Shown: positions 23,657 to 40,276 of the stretch, piece by piece
Position numbering within the stretch: position 1 is the stretch's first letter
Layout: each line of letters starts with the position of its first letter
Made by a program: the position numbers and the translations under genes
Virus record (IMG/VR): IMGVR_UViG_3300042566_000599
Span: 1-64,000 of that record
DNA: 64,000 nucleotides
From: a virus
Reading direction: 5' to 3' (one strand)
The notes under the pieces: model-generated
Told to the model about the DNA's origin: nothing
Databases searched by the model: none
What the model saw: only the letters and a program-made list of their open reading frames with translations

Positions 23657-23829
23657 CTGCTCTTCCTTATCTTTGGAAAGGTGACTACTACCCAGTAGTG
23701 CCAGAAGTGTCCTGACCAGGATGGTGCAGGTGAGTTATCTTTAAACACCATCCGCTTAAACCACCTGTACTGGGGCTCTCTATCTGCACCTGCTAATCGC
23801 ATATCAACTGCTCTAATCATGTGACCCTC

Positions 23830-24024
23830 CTAGTCATTACTGAGAAAGGGACGTATCTTCCACAATCTCAGGCGAAAGAATACATGACCCCACACCACAA
23901 ACTCCAATTCTAGGTACCCAGGAGCCGTTTTAAGGCCATTTGGGTAGCAGTAGAGCCTTCTGATGCCACTTCTGCGTTCGTACTTGCGTACGATGGCCTC
24001 TAGCCGCTTATCTTCGTCGTCCAT
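23830..24024 (-). CDS. Hypothetical protein
   Basis: ORF with SD. Confidence 0.4.
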   Translation of the reverse strand: MDDEDKRLEAIVRKYERRSGIRRLYCYPNGLKTAPGYLELEFVVWGHVFFRLRLWKIRPFLSND

Positions 24025-24199
24025 TTTGCTCTAATCCTCCTCTAGATGGTCATTTTCGCACATTCTGGCCAATTCAGGCACAGCGTAGACCTTGCCACAC
24101 AACTGGCAGGTCCACTGAGCGAGCCTATCCTTCATCAGGAGCAGTCTACGGCTACTGCCTAACCTCCAACCCCTCAACCATGTCTCCAACCTGGGGGTT

Positions 24200-25100
24200 C
24201 CCTTGGGGAGTTTGACTTAATGGTGGGGGGTGTTATGTCAGTTGTATGTGTTGTTACTTCACCACCTGACTACTAATCAGGTGGTTGTTGTTCAACTCAT
24301 GCTTTGTTATCAGGTGTGAATAATTATTTGGTGACAACATTGGTGACAATAACTTCGGCTACTGTGCAGATTGCAACATGGTCTGTGCGAATACCACCAA
24401 GCCAACAGACCACCTCACCAGTTGTTATCACATACTTTGTTACTCGCTTCGCGTTGCTATGTGTTGTTATGTAGTTAGTTATTAGTTGTTACAACTAACG
24501 ATTCGTTATGTGTAGATAGTTACTATGACTAACTGGGTTATTCCCTAGTAATTAAGTGACTCACTCAGTCATTCCCTAGTAAGCCCAGTAACTTCAGCAC
24601 TAGACATCTTGGTAAGTTACTTCGTGACTGGTCTGGTGATGTAGCCAGTTAGTGATGAAGTAACTTTAGTTTCGCCATTCCTACTTACTTGTTTTATCCA
24701 CAGGTGTAACTCTTCATACGCACGACAGCAGAACACCTAGTTACTTATCTCTATTCCTAAAGTGTTTATTTGTATTAGGTGTATCTCTATCTATTCTTTA
24801 TGTATCTATTGCAATCTTTGTATTAGTCATTACTGAAAAGAAAAACCTCTTGGCGCGAATAGTTATGTGGGGGCGCACGCTCAAACACGAACTAACCAAC
24901 TTTCATAACGGGGATACAGGTGGGTTACTTGTAGGCACACAGGGCGCACAGGCACAACAGGCACACACAAAAACGCGAACTAACTTGGAATGGCAGCCAC
25001 GAAGTTAGTTGAAGATTCAACTACCTCATGAGGGGGCTGGGGCGCATACAGGGCTATCTAGGCTCAAAACCCCTATGAACACGCCTGTACAACTCAGTCG
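24200..25100. other. Non-coding divergence region, putative origin or genome-end region
   Basis: No long ORFs; about 8 TGTTA(T/C) motifs, TTATCCACA at 24694-24702, AT-rich tract 24740-24845; strand switch. Confidence 0.5.
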
Positions 25101-25108
25101 GTCATCTA

Positions 25109-25117
25109 TGGCATAAT
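25109..25117 (+). promoter_or_regulatory. Extended -10 promoter element
   Basis: TGgCATAAT immediately before the structured region. Confidence 0.55.
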
Positions 25118-25123
25118 TGGGTC

Positions 25124-25795
25124 TGCACACGCGACCAACGCGATTCGGAAAAGTAGCACCTGTCGAGTGATTCCGAATCTCTAGTAGTCAGAGTGAAAAA
25201 GGCAAAGCGCAATTACAAACTGCGGTGTATCTGTTTATAGAACTTCGGTTCGCGGTTGATAACCAAAACAGAGTGACGAAAGAGTTTAGGTGCGTAAATT
25301 AAATAGTGACTAAGAAGCACGCGATAACTAATTGTGTTTCAGTTAATTAACATAACGATTACCAATAGTGAATCTACCTATTGCTAACGGATTAACTGGA
25401 AACAATTACATTACGAAAGTTAGGAATAAAAACTTTCTTGCGAAGACTTGTTATACGCCATGACTAACTTGTTTATTCAACGCACCGAATAAATAAATTA
25501 CGAGCGATTAAATGTAACAACGAGCGATTAAGTAATAAACGATAACGACGAACGATTAGGAAACTAATTGTGTATAGCGTGTGGCTTAGAAGAGTTATGG
25601 AAAGTTGTATAACTCAGATTGTCAGTTGTTCATGGATTGCCAACTTTGTTGGTGCAGACAGTAACCAATCTGTTCGACAGAACAATGAAGACAACTGAAC
25701 AATCTAGTTATACATACTTAGTAATTCCGCTATGTGCTTTCTGCGATTGTTAGTGACAACCACTCAGCGAAGTGACTCACTAACAATCGTGGTGA
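25124..25795 (+). ncRNA. Putative large structured non-coding RNA of unknown class
   Basis: No sense ORF; at least 8 helices, UUCG and GAAA tetraloops, complementary loops GGUGCG/CGCACC; boundaries approximate. Confidence 0.65.
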
Positions 25796-25818
25796 ATACA
25801 TAGGAAGGTAATAAACAA

Positions 25819-25989
25819 ATGCAAATCACATACACAGTCGGTGACTTATTCACCTCTACTAAATCACGAGTGACTGGAACTATCCAAGAGATTGTTCCCA
25901 TTAGCGATTCCCTAGTAAAAGTCAGATTAGATGTTGAAGGCGTTACTCGCTGGACTACATGGACACCTGATGTTGAACCTACTGAATAA
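25819..25989 (+). CDS. 56-aa small beta protein (not in ORF track)
   Basis: MQITYTVGDLFTSTKSRVTGTIQEIVP...VRLDVEGVTRWTTW; SD AGGAAGG. Confidence 0.65.
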   Translation: MQITYTVGDLFTSTKSRVTGTIQEIVPISDSLVKVRLDVEGVTRWTTWTPDVEPTE

Positions 25990-26015
25990 ACCAATACAAG
26001 AAAAAGGAGAAATAA

Positions 26016-26303
26016 ATGGGCGAAAGAATGTACGACTTCAACGATAGAGAGATAAGTGTTCTCGACCTAGCGTTGAGTTCAGTAATCGAAGCAACAAAAC
26101 ACGCACTTCTCGAAGGTATGACACCACCTGACGGACTACTGGAAACGCTGATAACAACTAATGAAAAACTACAACAGGTAATCCAATGGCGTTGTGACGA
26201 TTTCAATGAGTTCCAAGAGATAACACAAACTCTCTTTGATGTTGAATCAACGGCAAAACAGATAGAAAAAGACCCTGAAGTATCTACACCTGATTACAAC
26301 TAA
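26016..26303 (+). CDS. Hypothetical protein
   Basis: Strong SD AAGGAG. Confidence 0.65.
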   Translation: MGERMYDFNDREISVLDLALSSVIEATKHALLEGMTPPDGLLETLITTNEKLQQVIQWRCDDFNEFQEITQTLFDVESTAKQIEKDPEVSTPDYN

Positions 26304-26340
26304 ATAAACCAAATACCAATCACCTAGAGAAAGAAAACAA

Positions 26341-27723
26341 ATGACAACAAATTACGGCGTACTACTCGTTTCACAACCTGCTGATGTAAATGTAACTCGA
26401 CAGGTATTTATCGCAAACATAAACGGACAGACTGTTGTTCGTTCTCGATTCACAAATGGTAAGCAAGGAAAGCAGAACGCTTGGATAACTGAACCATTCA
26501 GTTATGAAAGTGGTGAGCCACTTATCGGTGACCCAGTTGCAATTCCTGTATCACAGAATGATGTTGAAGACTTCAGAGAAAACGGATTCCCACGAGTTCT
26601 GATTCAGAAACTAATTCGTAAGCACTCACTTGGTAATCAAGACATCACAGAAGAGGCGATAGCAGTTGCCGATTCAGTCTTCAGCGCAGTAGATAACGAC
26701 CCTGCTTCGCTTGCTCAGTATTACACCGACAATCGCGGTCAGCGTTCAGTAAAGGATTCAATCGTGGCAAACAATTCAGTTATTCGTATCAAGCCAGTCG
26801 CTTCTAACGAGTTAGTTAGTGAGCGTTCGTTGTATCTACCTAGTGTCGGTGAGTTCTCGCACTACATCTCACGAAAGTTTGCTGGTGATGTTGATGAACT
26901 CGCTATGTACCAATTCGCATTGAAGAACAAGATGAATGTTCTTCTTTATGGAGACGCTGGAACTGGAAAGACAACATCTTCAATGTGGGTATCTTCATTG
27001 TTAGGTCTTCCTTACTTTGCGATTCCTTCCAACTCTGCACTTGATTACACACAAATTGTTGGTGGCTATGTACCAAACGCCAATGGTTCTTTGTCATGGA
27101 GTGACGGCGCAGTAACTCGCTTAGTTCGTAATGGTGGAGTTCTTCTTATCGGTGAAGTAAATACACTTGCTAAGAATGTTCAACAATTCCTAATGCCACT
27201 ACTTGATTACCGCCGTTCAATTACTGTCATGGAGAATGGCAACGAAGTTATCAAGGCGCACGACAACTTGTTAATTATCGCTGACATGAATCCAAATTAT
27301 CGTGGCACTCAACTACTTAATGAAGCATGGAAAGACCGCTTCGAGATTAAGTTGAACTTCGATTATGACCGCAAGATTGAAGAGAAGATTCTCAAATCAG
27401 AATCACTCTTGGAACTTGCTTACGGCATGAGGTCGCGTTCTCGTGGTGCGAGTAACTACTCAAACACAGATAGCACCGCAATCTTCGATACTCCTGTTTC
27501 AACTCGTATCCTCAAAACATTTGAGAAGTTAGCAACAGAGTTGTCATTCGACTTTGCTTGTGAGGTCTTCATAAATAACTTTGATGAAAACGAACGACCA
27601 GCAGTAAAGATGTTGTTGGAATCAAATGCTTACAATCTCAAAGAAGATTTAGGTATTACTGATTCATCTTCTGTCACACGCGACAGAATCATTGAAGAAC
27701 ACTTAACTCGTCTTGATTCCTAG
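26341..27723 (+). CDS. MoxR-class AAA+ ATPase (CbbQ/NirQ/CobS-like)
   Basis: GDAGTGKT, WSDG.VT..VRNGGVLLIGEVN, MNPNYRGT..LNEAWKDRF. Confidence 0.88.
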   Translation: MTTNYGVLLVSQPADVNVTRQVFIANINGQTVVRSRFTNGKQGKQNAWITEPFSYESGEPLIGDPVAIPVSQNDVEDFRENGFPRVLIQKLIRKHSLGNQDITEEAIAVADSVFSAVDNDPASLAQYYTDNRGQRSVKDSIVANNSVIRIKPVASNELVSERSLYLPSVGEFSHYISRKFAGDVDELAMYQFALKNKMNVLLYGDAGTGKTTSSMWVSSLLGLPYFAIPSNSALDYTQIVGGYVPNANGSLSWSDGAVTRLVRNGGVLLIGEVNTLAKNVQQFLMPLLDYRRSITVMENGNEVIKAHDNLLIIADMNPNYRGTQLLNEAWKDRFEIKLNFDYDRKIEEKILKSESLLELAYGMRSRSRGASNYSNTDSTAIFDTPVSTRILKTFEKLATELSFDFACEVFINNFDENERPAVKMLLESNAYNLKEDLGITDSSSVTRDRIIEEHLTRLDS

Positions 27724-27734
27724 AAGGGAATGTC

Positions 27735-29657
27735 ATGTCACAACCAAAACTAACTGAGTTCGTTAATAGAGCGACTCAGATTCAACAGGAAGAAGAGCAG
27801 AACCGCGCTCGTGTCGAGCGACTAACTCGTTACTTCTCTCGTGTTAATTCAGCACTTACATTTCGTGAAATAAAAGTAACTGTTGAATCATCAGAACTAA
27901 ATGCACCTGCTTGGTCAGGTGCTAGTGACATCACACTTAATTCACGACTTATCAACGACTTTAACAAAGGCGTTAATGTTGCGAATCTTCGTGGTCTTAA
28001 CTTTCACGAGTTATCACACATTCTCTATACACCGCGTACAGGTTCAGAGATTGTCACATGGGTCAATGAACAGGGTTATCGCCAAGCGTTTAATGCACTA
28101 GAAGACCAGCGCATTGAAACTCTATTTACTTCACGATTCCCTTCAACTGTTGATTGGTTCGTAGTAACTGTTCTGACTTACTTTGTTAATGATGAACAAC
28201 AATTCGCAAACTCTTATCCGTTGCTTCGTGGTCGTAAGTATCTGCCACTAGAAGTGCGTACTAAGTCGCGTGAGTTGTTTATACACAAAGATAAGTTAGA
28301 TGAACTGTGTTCAATCATTGACGAATACAGAACACTTATTTACCCACTTGATACAGAGCGTGGCAAAGTTCTTGTTGAACAATTCCACAAACTCATTGAC
28401 TCACTACCTCAGCATGACAACGGAAGCGAAAGTGGAAGTGGCGAAAGTGGTGAAGGCAGTAATGAAGTTGTTGATTACAACGACATGGCTGAGTGGGAGA
28501 AAGAGATACTAAAGAACGCCACACCTGCTGACGGCACTATAAAGAACACTAAGACAGTTCTTAATTGCCCATTTGGTCACGAAGAGCGACCAACTGAAGG
28601 TATCGAACCAACAGTTGCTTCACGACCACAACCATTGAAACAACAGAAGCGCGATAGTGAAAGAGCAAAGCAATTAGATAGTGTGATTGAAGATGAAGCC
28701 GATTCATTCTTTGATTCACAATTTGATTCTGATTCACAATCTAACTCTGAGTCATTCGGTCAATCTGCTGGTACTGAAACTTCTCTTTCAGAACTTCTCA
28801 ATACCGCTATTACTGATGTTATGGATAAGCACGAAGTTGCTAACGAAATTAACAACATCATTCGTGTAATGAAGGGTCTTCCTTCTTTATCTTCTAACAA
28901 CCTAGAAGAACCTGAACCTGCTCGTTACCACAATCTAATTCCCGACAGTAGGACACTCTCTGCTTCAGTTTCATTCGCTCGTGAGTTAGAGCGATTGAAA
29001 GCAAAGTTTGACCCTGCTTGGGATAAGTACGAATCTCGTGGCAAATTAAATGCTTCTCGATTCATGCGTGGTGATGATTTAGATACAGTCTTTGATTCAT
29101 GGAATGAAGGTCGTGAAGATGTTACTGAGATTGAAGCAGTAATCATTCTTGATAATTCAGGTTCTATGAATGGAGAAAAAGCAACTCAGTCTTATCGTGC
29201 TATGTATGCAGTTAAATACGCACTCGACAAGATTGGTGCTAATTGTTCTGTTCTTACTTTCAACACACAAACTCGAACTCTTTATCACGCAACTGAAAAG
29301 GCAAACAATTCAGTTCGTGATAGTGGAACAACAGGTGGCACAGAAGCCGAGTATGCAGTTCGTTATGCAACTAAGTTACTTGCTGAATCAACCAAGCCTG
29401 TAAAACTATTCTTTGCAATTACTGACGGAGAATGGTCTGACACAAAGGTTTGTGATGAAGAGATTAAGAAACTCTCTCGTGCTGGCGTGCTAACCGCGTT
29501 TGCATACATTCCTGAATCACATGAAGAAGTTGTGCTGACTCACGAGAAGGCGCACTACTCAGATGTTGCTTCAGTAATTCGTAATCCGTTTGACCTTGTT
29601 GGTATGGCTCGAATAATCGTGCAAAACGCGATTAGTCGCAGACTTACTAACGCTTAG
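27735..29657 (+). CDS. vWA-domain protein with N-terminal HExxH (CobT-like)
   Basis: HELSH...NALEDQRIE; MIDAS DNSGSM, GGT, ITDG. Confidence 0.85.
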   Translation: MSQPKLTEFVNRATQIQQEEEQNRARVERLTRYFSRVNSALTFREIKVTVESSELNAPAWSGASDITLNSRLINDFNKGVNVANLRGLNFHELSHILYTPRTGSEIVTWVNEQGYRQAFNALEDQRIETLFTSRFPSTVDWFVVTVLTYFVNDEQQFANSYPLLRGRKYLPLEVRTKSRELFIHKDKLDELCSIIDEYRTLIYPLDTERGKVLVEQFHKLIDSLPQHDNGSESGSGESGEGSNEVVDYNDMAEWEKEILKNATPADGTIKNTKTVLNCPFGHEERPTEGIEPTVASRPQPLKQQKRDSERAKQLDSVIEDEADSFFDSQFDSDSQSNSESFGQSAGTETSLSELLNTAITDVMDKHEVANEINNIIRVMKGLPSLSSNNLEEPEPARYHNLIPDSRTLSASVSFARELERLKAKFDPAWDKYESRGKLNASRFMRGDDLDTVFDSWNEGREDVTEIEAVIILDNSGSMNGEKATQSYRAMYAVKYALDKIGANCSVLTFNTQTRTLYHATEKANNSVRDSGTTGGTEAEYAVRYATKLLAESTKPVKLFFAITDGEWSDTKVCDEEIKKLSRAGVLTAFAYIPESHEEVVLTHEKAHYSDVASVIRNPFDLVGMARIIVQNAISRRLTNA

Positions 29658-29679
29658 ATGTCACTCTCTAGGTGACTAG

Positions 29680-29723
29680 GTGTGGAGTGTGCTTTATTTT
29701 GGATTGCACACTCCACACTTTTT
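29680..29723 (+). terminator. Rho-independent terminator
   Basis: 13-bp perfect stem GTGTGGAGTGTGC/GCACACTCCACAC followed by T5. Confidence 0.8.
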
Positions 29724-29768
29724 AATTACTAATACAAACATTCACAATAACAATTAGGAGAAAAACAA

Positions 29769-30380
29769 ATGAAGTTTAATGAACTAGAACTCGGTGTTGC
29801 ATACGCAGTAATTCCTTCATGGACTTATTCATCACGAGATAAGAAAGACCCAACTCGTGTTCGTGCGATAGATGTTGAAAAAGCAACTCTTGTTAATTTA
29901 ACAAAGTATGAATACAAGGTGTATCGCTCTGACATTCCGAATCACCCTGAGTTTGTAAAAGCACCAACAGGTTCTCGCTCTGTCGGTTATCTATTTACTA
30001 ACAACGACTTAAACAATCCGACTTACTGGCTTGCACGACCACAGGACATTGTTGAGAAGTGGTCTGTATTAGAACCACGCTGGGCAGAACAGGAACGCCT
30101 AGAGAGGGAAGTAAGAGAGAAGCAACGATTAGAACAAGAGAAGCGCGAACAAGAGCGTAAGCACGCACAAGAGCAACGCCAGCGACTAGAGAAGGCAACG
30201 ATTGAATCTCTAGTTTCTATTCTCGGTAATCGCGCTAATAACACCAACATTCGATTCGATACTCGAAGTGGTCGTGACAACGAAGGTAACTACAAAGAGA
30301 TAAACATTGTGCAACTAGATGTTGATGTTGCACAAATACTTATTGAGAGAGTCCTAGAAGCGAAAGAGGTATTGGGATAA
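29769..30380 (+). CDS. Hypothetical protein with coiled coil
   Basis: SD AGGAG; 203 aa. Confidence 0.65.
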   Translation: MKFNELELGVAYAVIPSWTYSSRDKKDPTRVRAIDVEKATLVNLTKYEYKVYRSDIPNHPEFVKAPTGSRSVGYLFTNNDLNNPTYWLARPQDIVEKWSVLEPRWAEQERLEREVREKQRLEQEKREQERKHAQEQRQRLEKATIESLVSILGNRANNTNIRFDTRSGRDNEGNYKEINIVQLDVDVAQILIERVLEAKEVLG

Positions 30381-31012
30381 TGACAACAGAACTAGCAACT
30401 CAATCTCCTGTTAATACAGTCATTCGAGTTCGTGATGAATCTTTTTATTTAGACAGATTCAAGAAGGCAGTTAAGACCGCTTGGATTCCTAATGGTCGAA
30501 TCGTTGATACTGATTACTATTGTGAAATCTATAAAGAGTTTGCAATAGTAATTTGGAAACAAGAGATAAAGAAACCTGACGGCACGATACGACTTCACTT
30601 TAATAATTACATTTGGGAAGTCGGCTCAATCTATGACAACTTGCATAATCTAAATTGGATTTCACAAGGTTGTGTATCAACAGGCTATGGCGCAGTTTCA
30701 TTTGATAAGACAGTCGCTAAGGCTCACAAGAAAGTTGATTTACTATCTCTTCTTTATAGTGAGAAGTCGGAGTTACAAGCCCTATCACATACTTACGGCA
30801 GAACTCTCTTGCATGATGAAGAACCTATCTACAACGCACTTATTGGTGATGTAGTTGCTCTTCGTGCATTTGGTCGCGTACGACTTGGAAAGATTGTGAA
30901 ACTAACTGGCAGTCGTTTCGTTGTTGCTTACATGACACCCAGCAATTCACAAGATGTTCATTACAAAACTCTTCCACTTAATTACATCTACCCTAGAGAA
31001 AGGAAAAACTAA
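30380..31012 (+). CDS. Hypothetical protein
   Basis: Coupled ORF, 210 aa. Confidence 0.6.
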   Translation: MTTELATQSPVNTVIRVRDESFYLDRFKKAVKTAWIPNGRIVDTDYYCEIYKEFAIVIWKQEIKKPDGTIRLHFNNYIWEVGSIYDNLHNLNWISQGCVSTGYGAVSFDKTVAKAHKKVDLLSLLYSEKSELQALSHTYGRTLLHDEEPIYNALIGDVVALRAFGRVRLGKIVKLTGSRFVVAYMTPSNSQDVHYKTLPLNYIYPRERKN

Positions 31013-31188
31013 TGGCAACTCGATTAACTCGCAGAGGTTGGATTGTTCTTGTAATCATTCCTGCACTTCTACTTGCACTTCTAGTGTCGTGGGCAACTCG
31101 TGATGTTTGTTATGTAGGCGATAAGCCTTATGCAAACTTTCTCGGTTATGGCTCATGTGAAAAGTTAATAGATGAGGTGACAAAGTGA
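31012..31188 (+). CDS. Small membrane protein (not in ORF track)
   Basis: MATRLTRRGWIVLVIIPALLLALLVSW... Confidence 0.55.
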   Translation: MATRLTRRGWIVLVIIPALLLALLVSWATRDVCYVGDKPYANFLGYGSCEKLIDEVTK

Positions 31189-31442
31189 TTACATTCTTTG
31201 TATTGGTGACTATTGCGACTCTTATCGGGGTCGCAATAGCACTTTCATCTCCAATGATTGACGGAGAGTAACTATGGGATTTGCAGAAATAATCCATGTC
31301 AGCACAGAAGAACTAGAGATGTGCGATTCCTGTAATCAAGAAGGGCGTTTGATAAAAGGTCAATTCATAACAGATAGTTCAGGACAACCTGTTATGTGGT
31401 TCTGTTTTAACTGTGTTAATAAAGTTATTACTTAGGAGAATA

Positions 31443-32078
31443 ATGAAAACAAAAGTTTGCATAGGTTGTTTCTATGACTTACCGCTATCAAAGTTTAATA
31501 AACACATACAGGGTCAATACGGAAAGAGGGCAAGGTGTAAGAAGTGCCAAGCAATCTTGCGTAAGGGTTCTGTCGCACGAATGGCAAAGCGTAAAGCGTT
31601 ACTGGCACAAGGTAAGCGACCTTGTAATGGTTGCGGTAAAGCAAAGCCGTTATCTGCCTTTCAACCTAAGACACAGGCAAATGGTAAAGAAGGTTGGGAA
31701 GGTAAATGCAAGCCTTGTGTTTCTTTACGACAAAAGAGAAGCAGTATCTCTCGTAATAAAGAAGCAAGACAATTAGTGTTTGAGTATCTGAAGAAGAACC
31801 CTTGTATTGACTGTGGGGAAACTAATGTATTGGCATTGGAGTTCGACCATGTTTATAGCAAGAAGTTCAACATAGGTAATGCACTAAATAGCAACACCGC
31901 TATTGACTTGCTAAAAAAAGAGATAAAGAAGTGTGTTGTCAGGTGTTCTACTTGCCACAGAATAAAGACACACTTGGAAATTAACTCATGGCGTTTCCAA
32001 ATGTCTATTGAAGATAAAGCAACGAGTCGTAAAGTAAAAAGCACAAAACAATACAAAGCCTTAAAGAAGGTTTCGTGA
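31443..32078 (+). CDS. HNH-like endonuclease with Zn-finger repeats
   Basis: CxxC pairs; PCIDCGE...LEFDHV...KCVVRCSTCHRIKT. Confidence 0.8.
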   Translation: MKTKVCIGCFYDLPLSKFNKHIQGQYGKRARCKKCQAILRKGSVARMAKRKALLAQGKRPCNGCGKAKPLSAFQPKTQANGKEGWEGKCKPCVSLRQKRSSISRNKEARQLVFEYLKKNPCIDCGETNVLALEFDHVYSKKFNIGNALNSNTAIDLLKKEIKKCVVRCSTCHRIKTHLEINSWRFQMSIEDKATSRKVKSTKQYKALKKVS

Positions 32079-32626
32079 TGAATACAAAAGTTTGCAGTAG
32101 GTGTCGCAAGACAAAACCAACTACTTCATTCAATCGTAAGCGGTCTAGTGGGATAAGCGGTCAATACCAGCCTTACTGCCGACCCTGCCAAAGTGAGTAC
32201 CAAAGACAACACTACAAAGTAAGAACGCAAGACCAATTACAAAAGATGTATAAGAATCGAAGAAGGCGAAAGAAAGAGATTCATGAGTTCTTAGCCAATT
32301 ACTTTAAGAAAAACACCTGTGTTGATTGTGCTAAAAAGAAAGTTCGCATTAAGAAGTTACTTAGTGGGAAAGTTCCGACTTCAACAATCAACCAAATCAT
32401 AAAGATTGTGGATTCCGACATTCGCACCTTGACCTTCGACCACCTACACACAAGGGGCGATAAGGAACACACAATCGCTAACATGATTCGTGACATTCAA
32501 CCATTACACAAGATTAAAAAAGAAATACAAAAGTGTGTAGTGCGTTGTCATAACTGCCACGACATTATTACTGTGAAGCGTGCTAAAAATTGGAGATACC
32601 ACGCCCACAAACAAGTAACTAAATAA
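32075..32626 (+). CDS. HNH-like endonuclease
   Basis: CVDC...LTFDHL...KCVVRCHNCH. Confidence 0.75.
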   Translation: MMNTKVCSRCRKTKPTTSFNRKRSSGISGQYQPYCRPCQSEYQRQHYKVRTQDQLQKMYKNRRRRKKEIHEFLANYFKKNTCVDCAKKKVRIKKLLSGKVPTSTINQIIKIVDSDIRTLTFDHLHTRGDKEHTIANMIRDIQPLHKIKKEIQKCVVRCHNCHDIITVKRAKNWRYHAHKQVTK

Positions 32627-32630
32627 ATGT

Positions 32631-32778
32631 ATCTAGTGGGGGTTAAAGCGAGTGACCTTTGTAGGTTTCTATTCATTCCCTACAAACTGTTCAAGGCTAA
32701 GAACAACCATGACCTCTCATGGGTCTTTGTATTACTCCTTTCAACCATGAAAGCGAGTTGTATCTGCCCCCACTAGAT
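32631..32778 (+). ncRNA. Putative ~150-nt multibranch structured RNA or 5' leader
   Basis: 12-bp closing stem ATCTAGTGGGGG/CCCCCACTAGAT with four internal hairpins. Confidence 0.55.
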
Positions 32779-32802
32779 TCCCAATTAAGAAAGGAAGTAG
32801 AA

Positions 32803-33438
32803 ATGCCAAACTGGTGTTTTAACGCTCTTAACATCTCAGTTGAGAGTCCAAAACAATTACAAAAGTTAATGCAAGCAATTACAAATGATTCAGAACAACC
32901 TTTCGACTTCAATCGAATAATTCCAATACCTGAAGAACTCGCTAACACTTCATCACCTAATAAAGATAACGCTGATGAAATGAAAAAGAAGTATGGGTTC
33001 TCTGATTGGTATGACTGGCGAGTTACTAACTGGGGAACTAAATGGAACGCCTCTGATGTTGAACTCGACATTGAAACATCACAACAGATTCGTATTCGAT
33101 TCAATACCGCTTGGTCACCACCAACACCAGTTATTACAAAGATTGCAGAGAAGTTTCCTTTTGCTTTCATAACTTTGGATTGGGAAGAAGAAGGTGGTTA
33201 CTACGGCAACTCTGAGTACGAGAACGGCAGACTCACTTTAGAACACGAAGGCGAAATGGATTGTGACTATCGCTGGGAGAAGTGGGGGGAGTGTGCTGAG
33301 TGGTGCGAACAATGTGGTGTTTGTGATTGCGAAGTTTGTAATTGCGAGTATCGCTCACAACAAACGCTTTGTGAAAGATGTAATGACGGCGAACATGGAC
33401 AACTAAAAGGAGAAACAGATGAACCAACGACAGACTGA
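32803..33438 (+). CDS. DUF1281/YubB ferredoxin-like-fold protein with Cys-rich tail
   Basis: MPNWC.N, FDFN.IIP.P, WYDWRV.NWGTKWNA, F.TAWSPP. Confidence 0.8.
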   Translation: MPNWCFNALNISVESPKQLQKLMQAITNDSEQPFDFNRIIPIPEELANTSSPNKDNADEMKKKYGFSDWYDWRVTNWGTKWNASDVELDIETSQQIRIRFNTAWSPPTPVITKIAEKFPFAFITLDWEEEGGYYGNSEYENGRLTLEHEGEMDCDYRWEKWGECAEWCEQCGVCDCEVCNCEYRSQQTLCERCNDGEHGQLKGETDEPTTD

Positions 33439-33727
33439 CATAGTTAAAGGACTTACTCTTGCAAATGAGTTTCTAAAGATTCTTCGTGCGTTTAAGGTGG
33501 AACAAGCACATGAGAATCCAATTCCGTTTGAGGTAACTCATTCATTAGCAAACGCTCAATTAAATCTCGTAATGGAGAAATACAATTCAGACCCCGAAGA
33601 TTTAATTTGGGGTCTTGTGCAGGTTGTTGAGATGTTCCTAAAACTAACTGACACAGACCCCGAAGATTTATCGGGCGCACTAGACCAATTCATTCGCTTC
33701 ATTGAAGAACAGGAAAACGACAAATGA
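33419..33727 (+). CDS. Hypothetical protein
   Basis: SD AAGGAG. Confidence 0.6.
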   Translation: MNQRQTDIVKGLTLANEFLKILRAFKVEQAHENPIPFEVTHSLANAQLNLVMEKYNSDPEDLIWGLVQVVEMFLKLTDTDPEDLSGALDQFIRFIEEQENDK

Positions 33728-34059
33728 AAAAAGTAAAAGTAAAAACACTTCCTTCATCACAACCAAAGAGAGCGACTAACAATCCTGTCTTCAATCTCAA
33801 AGTGCCAACACCACGCGACATTGACCAAACTCCATGTCAAAAGAATGACCCTGAGATTTGGTTTCCTAGTGGAGAGAACCTTCCTGAAGACACCGAGAAG
33901 ATAAAAACTGCTAAATCACTATGCGCTCAATGCCACGAAACAACTAAGTGCCTTTCATTCGCATTATCGAATCGGATTCGTTATGGGATTTGGGGTGGCA
34001 CTACTGAATCAGAACGACAGACACTTATTCGTAGAGCAGAACGGAGTAAAACTAAATGA
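33724..34059 (+). CDS. whiB: WhiB-family transcription factor
   Basis: C..DPEIWFP...C.QC....C, GIWGG. Confidence 0.9.
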   Translation: MKKVKVKTLPSSQPKRATNNPVFNLKVPTPRDIDQTPCQKNDPEIWFPSGENLPEDTEKIKTAKSLCAQCHETTKCLSFALSNRIRYGIWGGTTESERQTLIRRAERSKTK

Positions 34060-34307
34060 CACCTACCTACACAGTTCGCGTATCTCTTAACTCAGTTACT
34101 TATGAAGTGACGGCAGATGATGAAGAACAAGCAATCGAGAAAGCCCACGAGTTTATCTTGGAAGAATCAACTTACGATTTAGCAAAGTGGGCAGACTATG
34201 AAGTAAGTATTGAAGAGTGTGATGTCTGCGAAGCACCTGACGGAACACCTCATTGTGATTGTGGTCAATGTGATTGTGGCGAAGACACAGAAGGGAATGA
34301 ATCATGA
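34056..34307 (+). CDS. Acidic Cys-rich hypothetical protein
   Basis: Coupled ORF. Confidence 0.55.
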   Translation: MTPTYTVRVSLNSVTYEVTADDEEQAIEKAHEFILEESTYDLAKWADYEVSIEECDVCEAPDGTPHCDCGQCDCGEDTEGNES

Positions 34308-34407
34308 AGTGTAACGATTGTGGCGCAAAAGTTACTTACGAGAGTATGACGGAAGAAGGCAACTGGTCATGCTCTGATTGTGGTTGGGATACAGGGGTGA
34401 GTGACTA

Positions 34408-34851
34408 ATGGTTAATACATTCCTTCCGTATCCCGACTTTGTTCAATCTGCACAAGCACTCGATTACAAACGACTTGGCAAACAACGAGTAGAAGCGTGG
34501 CAGATACTTCGTGCGCTTCGTGGAGAGACAAAAGGTTGGCGTAATCACCCAGCAACTAACTTGTGGCGTGGTCACGAGAAGTTACTTTGTGAATACGGAA
34601 TCGCAGTCTGTGATGAATGGATTGCTCGTGGTTACAAAGACACAATGCGTGAGAGATTCGTTGCAATACATTCGACTTACCCTGATTGTGAAATACCAAA
34701 ATGGTTTGGTAATACAAACTTTCATAATTCACATCAGAGTAATCTCAATCGCAAAGATTCGACTTACTATCACTTCAACATCACAAACGATTTACCTTAT
34801 TTGTGGTTCGACAATGAAACAGAACAACTCTATGAAAAGGAATCAAAGTGA
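34408..34851 (+). CDS. Pyrimidine-dimer DNA glycosylase (T4 DenV-like)
   Basis: TFLPY...LD.KRLGKQRVEA.QIL...HPA...W.G...EW..RGY. Confidence 0.8.
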   Translation: MVNTFLPYPDFVQSAQALDYKRLGKQRVEAWQILRALRGETKGWRNHPATNLWRGHEKLLCEYGIAVCDEWIARGYKDTMRERFVAIHSTYPDCEIPKWFGNTNFHNSHQSNLNRKDSTYYHFNITNDLPYLWFDNETEQLYEKESK

Positions 34852-35081
34852 CCGAGAAATCAGAATGGCTAACAAACGAACAGGTAAGTGAGTTACTGGG
34901 GTTGAAGTATTCAACTCTCTACACTTATCGAAGAAGGAACACTCTTCCTGAACCCGATACATACATTGGAAGAACTCCTGTATGGAATCGAAAGACAATC
35001 GAAGAATGGAAAAACAATCGCAGAGAAACTGAGATTGAGTTAATACCCGACCAACTAACAGAACAGGAAAACAAATCATGA
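34848..35081 (+). CDS. AlpA/excisionase-like HTH protein
   Basis: LT..QV...LG....TLY.Y....LPEPD...GRTP.W. Confidence 0.75.
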   Translation: MTEKSEWLTNEQVSELLGLKYSTLYTYRRRNTLPEPDTYIGRTPVWNRKTIEEWKNNRRETEIELIPDQLTEQENKS

Positions 35082-35356
35082 GAATAAAATTAAATAAGGA
35101 ATCAAATCCAAATACATCTTTTGTAATTGGTGTAATGAACAGTTATGAATTGAAATCAGGAATTGGAATTGGGTTCTCTTACTTCAATGACGGAACTTTA
35201 GATTTTGGATTCGTAATTGGTAAGAGTTACTTCAATCTTGAACTATTGTGGGGAAGAGCAGAAGAACTCTCTTACTATGAAGAAGAAGATGAAGCCGAAC
35301 AGGAACTTGAAGACTGGCTTGGTGAATTAGCAGAACAGGAAAGACAGAAGAACTAA
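35078..35356 (+). CDS. Hypothetical protein
   Basis: Coupled ORF. Confidence 0.55.
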   Translation: MRIKLNKESNPNTSFVIGVMNSYELKSGIGIGFSYFNDGTLDFGFVIGKSYFNLELLWGRAEELSYYEEEDEAEQELEDWLGELAEQERQKN

Positions 35357-35403
35357 CACATAGCGGAATAACTCAACTCTTCTAAGTTACTTGGTCACTA
35401 CCT

Positions 35404-35440
35404 AGACCCTCATTCCCGATACGGAATGGGGGTCTTTTTT
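35404..35440 (+). terminator. Rho-independent terminator
   Basis: AGACCCTCATTCC/GGAATGGGGGTCT stem followed by a T-run. Confidence 0.8.
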
Positions 35441-35450
35441 ATGCCCTCTA

Positions 35451-35552
35451 AGTTACTGACCAGTAGAGGGGCTTGCGATTTGCGCTAGATGTTACTGGTG
35501 GGTAACTTACTGGTTGTTACTAGCCAGTAACTTACTCGCCAGTAGAGGGGGC
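35451..35552. repeat. Array of GTTAC-N6-GTAAC-like palindromes before the recombinase
   Basis: Copies at 35452, 35491, 35516 and 35531. Confidence 0.75.
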
Positions 35553-35557
35553 GTTTT

Positions 35558-36835
35558 ATGGCGTATGTCGTTCAGCGTGGGTCACGATTTACAGGCTATT
35601 ACCGCATGGGCAAAAAACGCCTGTCTGCTGGCACATGGGGCAGTTTCAAGGAAGCCCAGTATCAGGCACTACGCATGGAGAATGGGGCTTCTGAGGGGCT
35701 TTCAAGGGCTAATTTGACCCTCTCTGAGTATGCCGATAAATGGCTTCAGAGGGCTGAATTACTGCCTATCACGAAAAAGGGGTATGAATCCCTATGGAAG
35801 AGGTACTTAGCCCCTCAAATCGGCTCTAAACAGGTTTCTGAGGTATCCACGCTTGAAGTGAGGGAATTGCTGGGCGAATTGAAGGCTCAGGGGGTAGGGG
35901 GCGCGACTCTCGCTCAAATCAAGGCGTGTCTAGGCTCTCTCTACAAATGGTTACAAGAGGGGCAAATTACTCAAACCAACCCAACTAGGGGCATAAAGGT
36001 CAAAGTGGGCAAATCGGACATCTCCAATGTGGTCGAGCCTGACCAGTTCAAGAAGATTGTGACCCACCTACCAACAGAGGGTGCAAAGTTATTTGCAAAG
36101 TTCTTAGTTGCTTCAGGGGCGAGATTCGGTGAGGCAAGTGAGATTCGATTAAAAGATTTTAATTTCAATACAAAAGAAGTTTTTATTCAGAGGCGTGTCA
36201 GCGAGTTAGGCAAGAAGCACAACAAGGGAGAAAGATTCCTAGTCGTAGATGCCACTAAGTCGGGTTACAAGCGTGTAGTGGTGCTACCTGAAGCCCTACT
36301 ACAAGAGATTCAAGCGTATGTCATGCTAAATCGCATAGGGAAAGACGACCTAGTGTTTGAGAAAAGCAAAGTCATACCAAAAGATAAACTAAAGAGTTCT
36401 CGTGGCACAGAAAAGTCTTCACGACCATTCGTGAAAGACGGAAAACTGTTCCAACATGGCACGCTCAGGGCTTACGCAAGTGGGTCTTGTAGGTGTGATG
36501 AGTGTAAGGCGATAGTTCGAGAGTATCGAAGGTCGCAAAGAGCAAAGTCATACCAAAAGGGTGAGGTCATACCAAAAGAACCGAGCCACTTGCCACGAGA
36601 TACATGGAGAACCATTTGGAACAAAGCAATAGCCAAATCAGGCATGGGTTGGAGTCCAAGAACTCACGATTTGCGTCACGCAAACGCAACGCAGTTACTT
36701 AAAAACGGCGTTGATGTGCATGAAGTAAAAGAGCGATTGGGTCACCAGTCCATCAAAACTACCGAACGCTATCTCCACCGCGTTCGTCACCAGAAATCAA
36801 AGGCGAGTGAAGTTGTCAATGACTTTCTGGGTTAG
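35558..36835 (+). CDS. int: Tyrosine recombinase/integrase with an inserted Zn-finger
   Basis: SGARFGE (R), TKSG (K), HDLRH, LGHQS..TT.RY; insert HGT..AY..G.CRCDEC. Confidence 0.92.
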   Translation: MAYVVQRGSRFTGYYRMGKKRLSAGTWGSFKEAQYQALRMENGASEGLSRANLTLSEYADKWLQRAELLPITKKGYESLWKRYLAPQIGSKQVSEVSTLEVRELLGELKAQGVGGATLAQIKACLGSLYKWLQEGQITQTNPTRGIKVKVGKSDISNVVEPDQFKKIVTHLPTEGAKLFAKFLVASGARFGEASEIRLKDFNFNTKEVFIQRRVSELGKKHNKGERFLVVDATKSGYKRVVVLPEALLQEIQAYVMLNRIGKDDLVFEKSKVIPKDKLKSSRGTEKSSRPFVKDGKLFQHGTLRAYASGSCRCDECKAIVREYRRSQRAKSYQKGEVIPKEPSHLPRDTWRTIWNKAIAKSGMGWSPRTHDLRHANATQLLKNGVDVHEVKERLGHQSIKTTERYLHRVRHQKSKASEVVNDFLG

Positions 36836-37468
36836 GAGAACTGATGAAACTAGAAACACAGAATCGGCTTGTAGTGCTAATTCTCAGCACCGCCTTCCTT
36901 TCGGGGTTGTTTGGTGTAGGCAGAGTTAGCCCAGCGTTTAGTCCAACACGGGCAGAGGCGTTGGTAGTGCAGGTCGAGCAAGAGTCCAGCGACAAGTTGC
37001 TTGTTAAGTTCGAGAACTCTCACAAGTTGAGTGACCTAGAACTAGTAGCCCTATTGAAAGCAGTAGGGTTCGAAGGCAAAGCATTACGAGAAGCATGGGC
37101 AGTTGCGAAGAAAGAATCGACAGGAAGACCGCTCGCGCACAATGGGAACGCCTCAACAGGCGACAACTCATACGGCTTGTTTCAAATAAACATGCTTGGA
37201 GAGTTGGGAGAAGAGCGTCGAAAGAAGTTTGGATTGGATTCCAATGCCGAACTGCTAAACCCTGTGGTTAATGCCCAAATCGCTTATCACATGAGCGGTG
37301 GGGGCGACAACTGGAGTGCGTGGAAGGGAATGACTCAGCGAACCAGAGAATGGATAGCAAAGTTCCCTGACACTAAACCAAAAGCCAAAGCAATAGCAAA
37401 AGGCAAAGGTAATAACTAAATAGGTAAAGCAATAGGTAAAGGCTAGTAAAGCAAAGTCTTACCAAAAG
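36366..37468 (+). repeat. Dispersed GCAAAGTCATACCAAAAG direct repeats
   Basis: 36366-36383, 36542-36559, partial 36566-36578, one-mismatch 37451-37468. Confidence 0.75.
36844..37419 (+). CDS. Secreted lysozyme-like/lytic transglycosylase
   Basis: N-terminal signal; AVAKKES.G...SYGLFQIN...L.NP..NA..AY......W.AW. Confidence 0.85.
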   Translation: MKLETQNRLVVLILSTAFLSGLFGVGRVSPAFSPTRAEALVVQVEQESSDKLLVKFENSHKLSDLELVALLKAVGFEGKALREAWAVAKKESTGRPLAHNGNASTGDNSYGLFQINMLGELGEERRKKFGLDSNAELLNPVVNAQIAYHMSGGGDNWSAWKGMTQRTREWIAKFPDTKPKAKAIAKGKGNN

Positions 37469-37476
37469 CAATACCA

Positions 37477-37512
37477 AGTGGAGTAGCCCTCTTGATTGGG
37501 GGTTACTCCACT
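37477..37512. terminator. Hairpin at the convergent junction
   Basis: AGTGGAGTAGCCCTC/GGGGGTTACTCCACT. Confidence 0.6.
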
Positions 37513-38252
37513 AAGTTTTTGTTTATTAAAAACCTCACTTGTTCCATGACCTTAGTTCTTTTTGCAGTCAAATATCTTTCTTTTAATGGTTTGAAAGAAG
37601 AATATGTATTTGGAGCAGTACTAATTTCTTCTTCTATGTTTTTTAAAACAGTTGAGTTTATGTAACGTTTAAAAACAATTTTTTTATTAGTCATAAACTC
37701 TACATAAAATAAAGGGTCTCCTTCATTAAAGACCATTGTTCTAGAAGTTTTTGGTAAAAAGTAATTTAAATGATAAGGCCTATACCAAGAACCAATATCA
37801 AACTCTCCTGCAGTTAATATAGCCCCAGGTGCAGGAGTATGAGTGGGAAAATAAGGAGCAGTAAACTTAGCAATTAGGGGCTCATCAGCAACAAAGTTCC
37901 ACGACAAATCTATGCTTATGTCATCGTAATTTTCGATAGAAGATGGTCTTGGTTTATAAGAATCAATTAAACAAGTTGAGTCTAGAGTGTCAAACATGAC
38001 CTTATACTCATCAATGTTCTTAGGGATGTTTGCTTGAAAAGACACTTCATTATAAACAGCATAAACGTTCTTTAACAAAGAGGTTGTCGCTGGACATGCA
38101 AATATTGTTTTTGGACCGCTATCACTTACTTTTTGTTTTCTAAGTGCATTAAACACATGCACTGGTTCTGCATAAAGCAGAGTTCTAGAGAATGCCTCTG
38201 GGTTATAACCAGAGGCAGTCCAATAGATTGTTATTGTGTCTTTGTCCTTCAC
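37503..38252 (-). CDS. Hypothetical protein, DUF6065-like paralog 2 (more divergent)
   Basis: ACPA, GEFDIGSWYRP, GDPLFYV.F; AT-rich. Confidence 0.55.
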   Translation of the reverse strand: MKDKDTITIYWTASGYNPEAFSRTLLYAEPVHVFNALRKQKVSDSGPKTIFACPATTSLLKNVYAVYNEVSFQANIPKNIDEYKVMFDTLDSTCLIDSYKPRPSSIENYDDISIDLSWNFVADEPLIAKFTAPYFPTHTPAPGAILTAGEFDIGSWYRPYHLNYFLPKTSRTMVFNEGDPLFYVEFMTNKKIVFKRYINSTVLKNIEEEISTAPNTYSSFKPLKERYLTAKRTKVMEQVRFLINKNLVE

Positions 38253-40276
38253 ACGTTGTCCTTAATGAGTTTTATTTCGCAAGCATCGGTTGTGCAGTAC
38301 GCTTCTCCGATTGCATCTGCTGCCATTCCAGCATACACTCCGCTGAAATCAATTGGAAAAACTTCCATTGTTGCTGCTTCATACGCTTCTTTAGTTGTTT
38401 GGGTGTACGGCATTTGGGGATAAACATGGTTGCCACTTGGTAAAAACGAGACTGTCTTTAACTGACCGTCATACATGTGCAACACAGTACCGATAGCAGA
38501 AGACTCTGTCTCTGGGTCAAAACTAATAGTGACACTTACAGAGTTGTCTGACCAGTATCTCTGGGCTGTAGCAGCAAGTGCCATTTTTTCATAAACACTT
38601 ACCTCTTTCTCTGAACGTATAGCATCTGACTTTACAGGGAAGAATACGACAGAAGTTGTATCTGGAGATTCGTTTGCTGGTTCAACTTTGTAATTAGCCA
38701 TTTTGAAGAGCGGCAACATAGGGTCATTGTTAGCAAAACGAATAGCACGCATGAAGTACTCGCCGCCAACAGACCAGTGAACTCCAGGAGATTCTCCAGC
38801 AAGAATAGAGACTGTTCCACTTGGCTTTACAGTCGTAGTCTTTATTGATTCACGAATACCCAACCACTCAGAATAGTTTTTATCGTAGTTTTGAATAATG
38901 GAATAACCTTTATCCATCCACTCACGTAAGGTTGGCAAACCTTTGTTATCTGCAAAGTTTGCGACTCCAGAGATAGATGTTCCAATGCGACGATTGCGCT
39001 GCATGATGGCGTTGGTCTCTTCCCAGTGAGTAGGAAGAAGCGTTACAGTCTTTGCATAGAGATATGCAAACTTTAGGGTGCGCAGGAAGTCTTCCAAGTT
39101 CTCGTGGCGATTTAAGTAGGTTTCAACCAAAGTACAGCACTCATACGATTCAAGAGACTGTTCGGCACAGGGGTTGTAGCCAGCAGCACGCCAATCTTTA
39201 TTGTTTGCAGGGTCAGCAAGCCGACCGTACTTACGAGTAACATCCATCCAGATAACTCCAGGCTCACCATTACGAGCAATGCCGTCAATGATTGGGGTCA
39301 AGTCTTGGCCAACAGATACCTCAACAGAGTTGTTGGACATCCAGCCGTGAGTCATACGCTCTGGATACTTGTCGTAGTTCTTTAAATTTAAGAAGTCTTC
39401 ATCGTCAAGTCGTCCCATTAACAACTCGGCAGAACGACGAACATTTCCAGACACAACACAAACACCAATCATGTTTCCAATGTCTGCAATGTCTCTACGA
39501 GTTAACTTTTGACCTGCACGACCGTTAAACATCGAACGAATCAAGTCGTGAAGTTTGATTAGTGGGTCTGGTCCTGCTGCGGTTCCACCGAACGTCTTGA
39601 TTGGTTCGCCTGCTGGACGGACTGCTTCGTAATTAAATACTGGATTCTTCGAATCTGGTCGTAAGTAGGAATTGATGAGGGCTGCGGTCGATTCGACCCA
39701 GCCTTCTCTGGTGTCTGGGATGTCATACGGTTGGTCTCCTTGTGGTGCGTAGATAGTGAACTCTTTGTCTGCGCCCTTATCATCAAAGCCAACTCCAACT
39801 CCAAGCATTGATGCTTCCATTAAGAATGCGAATGGTTTTGCTGGGTCTGTCTTTGTCATGGAACCAGTTGATACAAATGCACAGTTCTGTAGGGCTGCTG
39901 AATTTCGTTGAACATTCACTAGAGGAGTGCCCATAACCCACAGTCCGCGTCCTGGCGGTGTCCACTTCAAGTTAAATAGTCGGTCAAAGGCTTCTTTAGC
40001 AGAGGCTGCTGCTTTGGCGTCAGACCAAGGGAGTCGTTGACTTTTGGCGTGGTCCTTTTGAAGAGAGTACATACCGTTGATGACGCGTTCACATACGTCG
40101 ACCCATGTCTCTTTCTGACCATCTTGCTTTAGGCGAGAATAGGTTCGAAGGAAAGTGATTTCACCAACCGAGTTTCCACCAGCATCTCGATAGCCAAACG
40201 GTGCTTTCTTGTCCTTGTACTGGGCAATAAAGTCGTCAGTTAATTTAAAAGAAAAGTAATTCATTTCCCCTACCAT
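38249..40276 (-). CDS. nrdJ: Class II (B12-dependent) ribonucleotide reductase
   Basis: PPGRGLW, NCAF, GNVRRSA, NPCAEQ.L...CCTL, TTVKPSGT, C-terminal CTTDAC. Confidence 0.95.
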   Translation of the reverse strand: MVGEMNYFSFKLTDDFIAQYKDKKAPFGYRDAGGNSVGEITFLRTYSRLKQDGQKETWVDVCERVINGMYSLQKDHAKSQRLPWSDAKAAASAKEAFDRLFNLKWTPPGRGLWVMGTPLVNVQRNSAALQNCAFVSTGSMTKTDPAKPFAFLMEASMLGVGVGFDDKGADKEFTIYAPQGDQPYDIPDTREGWVESTAALINSYLRPDSKNPVFNYEAVRPAGEPIKTFGGTAAGPDPLIKLHDLIRSMFNGRAGQKLTRRDIADIGNMIGVCVVSGNVRRSAELLMGRLDDEDFLNLKNYDKYPERMTHGWMSNNSVEVSVGQDLTPIIDGIARNGEPGVIWMDVTRKYGRLADPANNKDWRAAGYNPCAEQSLESYECCTLVETYLNRHENLEDFLRTLKFAYLYAKTVTLLPTHWEETNAIMQRNRRIGTSISGVANFADNKGLPTLREWMDKGYSIIQNYDKNYSEWLGIRESIKTTTVKPSGTVSILAGESPGVHWSVGGEYFMRAIRFANNDPMLPLFKMANYKVEPANESPDTTSVVFFPVKSDAIRSEKEVSVYEKMALAATAQRYWSDNSVSVTISFDPETESSAIGTVLHMYDGQLKTVSFLPSGNHVYPQMPYTQTTKEAYEAATMEVFPIDFSGVYAGMAADAIGEAYCTTDACEIKLIKDNV

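Follow-up and report, generated by a model that had tools for sequence, protein, structure and literature searches.

We analysed a 64-kb stretch of viral DNA (the window), the first two thirds of the 96,345-base IMG/VR contig IMGVR_UViG_3300042566_000599 (genome G000), in which a block of about 13 kb is nearly free of the short words that restriction enzymes cut. The contig, rated complete by CheckV, is the 96-kb genome of an uncultured lake-water myovirus of Actinobacteria; its closest cultured relative by the large terminase subunit TerL (52-54% identity) is the Streptomyces myophage BRock (Borockvirus). All large genes outside the block, among them those for the portal, TerL, the ribonucleotide reductase, a TGT/DpdA-like protein, the DNA polymerase and the helicases, are carried by the minus strand. 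Only one operon lies on the plus strand (~25.8-37.4 kb), and it makes up most of the block, which we call the arm; the remaining DNA is referred to as the main body. When the block plus 20 kb of the main body was compared with 50,697 phage records by megablast, no match was found. Sequencing evidence was taken from Logan contigs of 24 holders of this DNA, all of them lake-water metagenomes and none an RNA data set, and depth refers to the k-mer depth of contigs, not to reads.

Restriction-type words are purged from one transcription unit

Restriction motifs were scanned with a REBASE-derived site list in Biopython. Between 24195 and 37570, ACGT occurs 0 times versus 285 times in the remaining genome (gap 23851-37665), ATAT 0 versus 229 (gap 23801-37572), GGCC 0 versus 100, CCWGG 0 versus 138 and GGWCC 0 versus 78. 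GCWGC is left with 1 copy (at 24993, between 22871 and 38319) versus 178 elsewhere, and GTNNAC is absent where 59 copies would be expected from its density in the rest of the genome. Outside the block, each of these seven words has 78-365 copies. An earlier note on this DNA, made by eye from the letters, had reported gaps in GGCC (24067, then 37777) and CCWGG (24190, then 37825), and both positions are exact. It had further listed GGWCC (24109, then 38113) and GCWGC as seemingly missing or rare, and had placed the gap on the plus-strand gene block; the counts agree on all three points, and the block holds the only plus-strand operon of the genome. The depletion is wider than claimed there, because ACGT, ATAT, GTNNAC and hexamer palindromes are purged as well.

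In total, about 35 distinct short restriction motifs have 0-1 copies in the block, whereas 9-59 are expected from their density elsewhere. These include GTNNAC, GCNGC, CTRYAG, GDGCHC, CTYRAG, RAATTY, GGNNCC and CCNNGG, together with the non-palindromic, type IIS-like words GGATG, GCATC, CCATC, CASTG and GGGAC. Ungapped six-base palindromes number 23 in the block versus 139 expected, a scarcity that no 2-kb bin elsewhere in the genome approaches. Palindromes of the 3+3 form with a gap of 1-6 bases show no general depletion; only specific gapped words are depleted (GTNNAC, CCNNGG, GGNNCC, CCNGG, GCNGC and GGNCC), the pattern that enzyme specificities leave behind. Normal frequencies in the block are seen for no more than three hexamer palindromes, namely TTGCAA (8 copies), TAATTA (7) and TCATGA (4), with at least one TCATGA being a stop/start overlap. 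For TTGCAA and TAATTA, as for six other hexamer palindromes, the REBASE-derived list holds no exact-site enzyme, and these two alone of the eight are not covered by a longer degenerate site either. In addition, GATC, CCGG and AGCT have zero copies across all 96,345 bases.

As controls for composition, we used the maximal-order Markov expectation and 200 synonymous-codon shuffles of the 18 block genes. The Markov expectation for the block is 33 ACGT, 35 ATAT and 16 GGCC. Shuffling gave means of 37 ACGT, 36 ATAT, 13.5 GGCC, 32 GTNNAC and 130 hexamer palindromes, and the minimum for ACGT and ATAT in 200 shuffles was 22-25. The genes themselves contain none of the four words (0 ACGT, 0 ATAT, 0 GGCC, 0 GTNNAC) and 15 hexamer palindromes.

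We then compared relatives, that is, 14 IMG/VR loci that were retrieved with the von Willebrand A domain (VWA) protein of the block (44-76% identity). A block-specific purge is present at the same place in 14/14 relatives, with word sets that vary by lineage. GGCC, CCWGG, GGWCC and GCWGC are lost from the arm in all 14, ACGT and ATAT in the G000 lineage and several others, and TGCA and GTAC only in L002-L004. Few words are missing from the arm of G004, which retains hexamer palindromes, and GATC is at zero genome-wide in some lineages and common in others. Exactly one transcription unit is under strong, lineage-specific selection against restriction-type words; the purge has sharp edges, is conserved in place and is independent of composition. 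The VWA protein is 50-76% identical among these phages versus 89-96% for TerL of the same genomes, so the arm evolves, or is exchanged, faster than the body. This agrees with the high variability reported for leading regions (PMC12455610).

Two words behave in ways of their own. ATAT, with 0 copies versus ~36 expected in the arm, is lost in several lineages and always together with ACGT. AYRT as a single degenerate motif behind both losses was rejected, since ACAT/ATGT is not depleted. The REBASE-derived list contains no ATAT-cutting enzyme, and the purge of this word may point to a specificity among the hosts that has yet to be characterised. For CGCG the polarity is opposite: its strong deficit lies in the main body, and the deficit is milder in the arm (G000, G002, G003 and G004). 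In G000, the main body has 61 copies versus 112 expected and the arm 24 versus 33; the corresponding values in G003 are 6 versus 95 and 7 versus 36.

Terminal element and predicted left end

With 24195 taken as the start of the genome, some 35 genes are arranged as in BRock, on the minus strand in both. A tblastn comparison gave 41 matches, all of them collinear except the reductase (TerL 52%, portal 57%, capsid 61%), and the terminase, portal, capsid, sheath and replication genes follow in the same order. In BRock, too, the left physical end carries a plus-strand arm of 12 kb (gp1-27), while GiJojo has a terminal opposite-strand arm in mirror image; arms of BRock/GiJojo-like phages measure 10-12 kb. 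The ends of BRock are formed by a direct terminal repeat of 221 bp, which was recognised experimentally by doubled, sharply bounded coverage (PMC7453282), and the GiJojo record has an identical 197-bp sequence at both ends.

Positions 24193-24400 of the window align to both of these repeats, which predicts a short direct terminal repeat of ~207 bp. Two words are common to the window and to the BRock and GiJojo repeats, TTAAAGGT(G/A)GGGGG and GGCTACTGC, in the same order and at similar spacing. Thus, the counterparts of TTAATGGTGGGGGG (24217) are TTAAAGGTGGGGGG in BRock and TTAAAGGTAGGGGG in GiJojo, both at base 27; those of TTCGGCTACTG (24354) are TTCGGCTACTG near BRock base 175 and GGCTACTG at GiJojo base 154. 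By a rough estimate, both words would turn up by chance within 221 bases, ordered and spaced in this way, with a probability far below 1e-4. In the alignment, position 24193 +/- 3 is the counterpart of BRock base 1, and ~24400 that of the end of its repeat. The predicted repeat further contains the inverted repeat CACCTGA..TCAGGTG and TTGGTGAC twice, and repeated GGCTACTG and TTGGTGAC words are found in the left terminal element. Among the lake phages, 24146-24430 is the sole conserved non-coding stretch. It includes an upstream copy of TYGGCTACTGCC, which is conserved in all aligned relatives and stands 67-68 nt ahead of TTAATGGTGGGGGG in 26/27 related loci.

The purge begins at this element. 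Across the 27 related loci that carry the terminal element, the last upstream site is always the same ACCTGG, and the joint density of GGCC, CCWGG, GGWCC and GCWGC falls from 6.4/kb before it to 0.46/kb after it. The opposite genome end (23.0-24.19 kb) has a normal site density immediately to the left of ACCTGG, so the purge is polar. In the window, the last CCWGG (24190-24194) straddles the predicted terminus. Homology supports a location of the block at the genome terminus, with the left end at ~24193, where the purge begins; this exact coincidence between the start of the purge and a terminus predicted by homology is among the new points of the analysis. The first-injected or terminal-repeat module proposed in the earlier note holds up in its terminal position, through BRock synteny and repeat homology, and fails as a repeat of 10-13 kb. 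Its repeat arrays at both ends of the block were partly real, in the form of the conserved terminal element on the left and of A-rich 16-19-nt repeats on the right.

Two contig starts were counted as weak support for the terminus, one of a Logan contig (run X6) exactly at 24193 and one of an IMG/VR contig at ~24161. Two further contigs that start 69 nt before a match to TTAATGGTGGGGGG lack the second word and were discarded as chance hits. The invariant ACCTGG (24190-24195) lies exactly at the predicted terminus, is the only CCWGG tolerated beside the arm and may be part of the terminase cutting signal. IMG/VR flags direct terminal repeats of 127 bases (1-127 and 96219-96345); these are an exact overlap of both contig ends, the usual mark of a circular assembly path and not of virion ends, and they lie far from the terminus predicted by homology.

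Genes of the arm and its right edge

The features of the arm and its borders are collected in Table 1. A core of five genes (26016-31012), encoding the acidic 95-aa protein, the AAA_5 ATPase, the VWA protein and the proteins of 203 and 210 aa, runs through L002-L015, while other arm genes come and go. The AAA_5/VWA pair is conserved in all 14 related loci and also occurs in Gordonia, Microbacterium, Brevibacterium and Listeria phages. The 95-aa protein has an isoelectric point of 4.1 and a net charge of -13 and is predicted to fold into a helical hairpin (pLDDT 88). A Foldseek search of this model against the PDB gave nothing at E <= 0.001, and only hairpins of the ribosomal protein L29 type at E > 0.3. 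The arm encodes additional small acidic proteins. In the first HNH protein, the N-terminus matches a Lar-like zinc ribbon (PHROG 5558, Lar-like restriction alleviation, 5.5e-15).

Table 1. Positions of the terminal element, the arm genes and the adjoining features in the window.
Feature	Position	Strand	Remarks
Upstream copy of conserved word TYGGCTACTGCC	24146..24160		where the minus-strand (right) arm ends; predicted terminus follows after ~45 nt
Predicted short direct terminal repeat (~207 bp) and predicted left end	24193..24400		alignment to BRock and GiJojo repeats
Operon leader, ORF-poor (few open reading frames, ORFs), 1.4 kb	24401..25818	+	without purged words; variable between relatives; contig-break hot spot
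First two small ORFs, 56 aa then 95 aa	25819..26303	+	95-aa protein kept in 12 relatives
MoxR/CobS-like AAA_5 ATPase (460 aa) and VWA protein (640 aa)	26341..29657	+	Pfam AAA_5 3.7e-25, VWA 3e-8
Two conserved proteins, 203 and 210 aa	29769..31012	+	homologues in 14/14 relatives; no Pfam or PHROG match
Two basic Cys-rich HNH / endonuclease VII-like proteins	31413..32626	+	PHROG 2255 6.5e-33
Acidic protein with Api92-like ferredoxin domain	32719..33438	+	Pfam DUF1281_C 5e-14
WhiB-type regulator	33724..34059	+	Pfam Whib 3.7e-19
Very acidic 83-aa protein	34056..34307	+	net charge -20, 6 Cys; specific to this lineage
DenV-like pyrimidine-dimer glycosylase, then HTH_17 (Xis/AlpA-like) DNA-binding protein	34408..35081	+	Pyr_excise 7.1e-23; HTH_17 1.7e-8
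Tyrosine integrase (425 aa) and SLT-type lytic transglycosylase (191 aa), last arm genes	35558..37419	+	Phage_integrase 5.6e-24; SLT_3 2.5e-16
Strong intrinsic terminator, 15-bp stem and T run	37477..37512	+	closes the plus-strand operon
Last minus-strand body genes: 249-aa protein and class II-like ribonucleotide reductase	37503..40276	-	normal site density

On the right, the purge ends at the terminator, where the plus-strand operon meets the last minus-strand gene, and the first ATAT follows at 37572. The close relative L004 has an equivalent terminator with a 13-bp stem, whereas distant relatives have weak candidates only. The A-rich repeats precede the terminator (37374-37477). Pairing of this trailer with the leader RNA (24475-25385) was considered and dropped, as the antisense matches reach only 10-11 nt (E 0.06-0.4) and are not significant by themselves. 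Within 24000-38000, leader included, no Rfam family was found at E <= 0.1.

At the nucleotide level, the leader is hardly conserved between relatives, and numerous independent IMG/VR contigs begin or break off in it, from either side (L003, L009, L011, L013, L063, L103, L137 and others); it is probably hypervariable within populations and thereby breaks assemblies.

The WhiB-type regulator indicates an actinobacterial host. An assignment of the host from metagenome-assembled genomes was rejected: contigs bearing TerL had been binned as Nanopelagicaceae, Saccharimonadales and Armatimonadota, probably as binning artefacts, and the integrase gave only weak Xer-like matches to those genomes.

Genome entry and alternative explanations

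Restriction avoidance in DNA that enters the cell first has been described for the first-step-transfer DNA of T5 and for early regions of T7-like phages (PMC12455610, PMC8594841). We think it probable that the block is likewise a terminal early arm that faces restriction first. The virion DNA would have fixed ends and a terminal repeat of ~207 bp starting at ~24193. Positions 24193-37512 would then form the early arm, consisting of the leader and one plus-strand operon transcribed inward, with everything else transcribed from the other strand, towards the arm. Being exposed to host enzymes before any phage counter-measure is in place, the arm would have lost by selection nearly every word of 4-6 bases that is cut in the host population, the set depending on the lineage. 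The remaining 83 kb keep these words and, we infer, enter or become accessible only after arm products have neutralised restriction. If the whole genome entered at once, hundreds of sites in the main body would be cleaved before a first protein was made; the rest must hence enter later, be shielded, or have its attackers neutralised in time. Because the body is transcribed towards the arm, pulling by RNA polymerase as in T7 would bring in the arm only, up to the terminator, and a second, protein-dependent step of the T5 kind would be needed. Neither a member of the three main DNA methyltransferase families nor QueC was found in the genome, so no phage methyltransferase explains the protection of the body.

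The likeness to T5 (Tequintavirus) lies in a terminal segment of ~8-14% of the genome that carries early genes and lacks restriction sites kept elsewhere, the remaining T5 genome being insensitive to restriction. An EcoRI site gained in the first-transfer DNA of T5 sensitises the phage (PMC12455610). However, T5 is a siphovirus and the lake phage a BRock-like myovirus; the T5 segment lies inside a terminal repeat of ~10.2 kb, whereas the repeat predicted here is ~207 bp and the depth of the block is not doubled; and T5 avoids single hexamer sites, the lake phage ~35 motifs and nearly all hexamer palindromes. PHROG and Pfam annotation revealed no protein homology to the T5 pre-early genes. With T7-like phages (the class I region of T7 with Ocr, and Murciavirus), the lake phage would share fixed ends and a short terminal repeat, as well as early genes that run inward from the entering end to a terminator (operon 25819-37419, terminator 37477-37512). 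In these phages, motifs in the leading region alone decide restriction sensitivity, and that region varies greatly; in Murciavirus, type I motifs count only in the early-injected region (PMC12455610). But the whole T7 genome is co-oriented and can be pulled in by RNA polymerase, while 83 kb of the lake phage are oriented against the arm; the Foldseek search brought up no Ocr-like fold for its acidic 95-aa early protein, and Murciavirus avoids one type I motif only. The leading regions of conjugative plasmids, in work to which PMC12455610 refers, are likewise first-entering DNA that is poor in restriction targets and encodes anti-defence genes; they differ in single-stranded transfer and in having neither virion nor terminal repeat.

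Several points weigh against an early arm that enters first. The left arm of BRock is not purged, and architecture alone does not imply a purge. This arm shares no detectable proteins with that of the lake phage and retains its palindromes, and BRock has 29 tRNAs and no integrase (PMC7453282), unlike the lake phage, which has an integrase and no tRNA genes in the window. The ends of IMG/VR contigs cluster in the leader at 24.4-25.8 kb, with only the two starts described above near 24193, and contigs do not directly display the putative termini, a doubled 207-bp repeat or the presumed order of entry. Apart from the Lar-like zinc-ribbon match, no anti-restriction fold or family was identified in the arm. 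A TGT/DpdA-like gene lies beside it, and some modification of main-body DNA is possible. Genome entry in stages is not known from contractile-tailed phages.

A bolder version, which we put forward tentatively and hold to be rather less probable than the early arm as such, is a two-stage delivery by a contractile-tailed actinophage. A site-free arm of 13.4 kb would enter and be expressed alone; its conserved module (the acidic helical protein, the MoxR-like AAA+ ATPase, the VWA protein and the 203-aa and 210-aa proteins) would then provide either a shield against type II restriction, broad and independent of sequence, or the motor for the remaining 83 kb. The list of purged words would be the negative image of the host repertoire, including an ATAT enzyme. 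We infer entry order, its staging and an anti-restriction role of arm genes.

Avoidance was known for single T5 sites and for one type I motif of Murciavirus. New is the same principle across a 13-kb arm and dozens of motifs, in lineage-specific sets, as is its presence in a short-repeat, BRock-like myovirus of uncultured lake Actinobacteria. The purge offers a computational marker for the end of a phage genome that meets the host first, a read-out of restriction specificities in hosts that cannot be grown, and a short list of conserved early genes as candidates for broad anti-restriction. It is also a natural example of the 'stealth DNA' design that is used for transforming intractable bacteria. 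If staged entry holds for a myovirus, the mechanism would extend beyond T5-, T7-, N4- and phi29-like phages.

The strongest competitor of the early arm, though we judge it unlikely, is region-specific modification. Here, the body DNA would carry a protective base and the arm would be left unmodified, for instance for reading by the host RNA polymerase, WhiB or the integrase, and would thus avoid the words, so that the whole genome may enter at once. Candidate makers are encoded at 40.4-43.8 kb, where TGT/DpdA-like, nucleotidyltransferase, ART and HAD genes lie. The 501-aa TGT/DpdA-like gene (40422-41927; PHROG 887, 4.6e-58) adjoins the arm, and its homologues are gp36 in BRock and a protein annotated as dpdA-like transglycosylase in GiJojo. 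But a motif-directed change of guanine cannot protect ATAT, TTTAAA or RAATTY, words which the body keeps and the arm lacks, and a non-specific modification would cover the arm too. The failure to detect QueC or a DNA methyltransferase also speaks against it, as does the dependence of the purged set on lineage, with dozens of unrelated specificities instead of one modification word.

Far less credible is a long terminal repeat of the T5/SPO1 type, that is, a 13-kb repeat present twice per virion that collapsed in assembly. The block does lie at the predicted terminus, and its size resembles that of the T5 and SPO1 repeats. However, k-mer depths inside versus outside the block were 6.0/5.9, 6.6/7.7 and 5.3/5.3 in the three independent runs X3, X4 and X6 (short contigs, 5-8x), that is, ratios of ~0.86-1.0 where the earlier note had envisaged a doubling. 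Moreover, the probable source run has a single 62-kb contig that spans both edges, and the homologous repeats of BRock and GiJojo are only 221 and 197 bp long (PMC7453282 for BRock).

We give just as little credence to a foreign island, a mobile element, integrated or invertible, that was acquired from a different host background with its own integrase and Xis-like gene, which the earlier note had offered as its alternative. In its favour are the integrase and HTH_17 genes, the opposite strand, the slightly lower G+C content and the faster divergence of arm proteins relative to structural ones. But position and orientation do not vary among the 14 relatives, and an analogous arm is present in BRock-like phages. 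Like the rest of the genome, the block contains no GATC, CCGG or AGCT, and its left edge is an element homologous to a terminal repeat. No att-like sequence links the edges (best direct match 9 nt, E 1.7; best inverted match 11 nt, E 0.11), and Logan contigs from four runs contain no joint that skips or inverts the block.

A side effect of base, codon or amino-acid make-up, or chance, can practically be dismissed as the cause of the depletion: the word composition of the arm is skewed, but Markov and shuffle expectations amount to 13-37 copies for words seen 0 times (13.5-37 in the synonymous shuffles, which refute this explanation, also considered in the earlier note). Trinucleotide content does account for an apparent excess of GATC, TCGA and GANTC in arms, which we rejected as a signal, since for GATC the observed and expected numbers were 113/105 and 140/132; this excess is a side effect of the purge, which squeezes the vocabulary of the arm.

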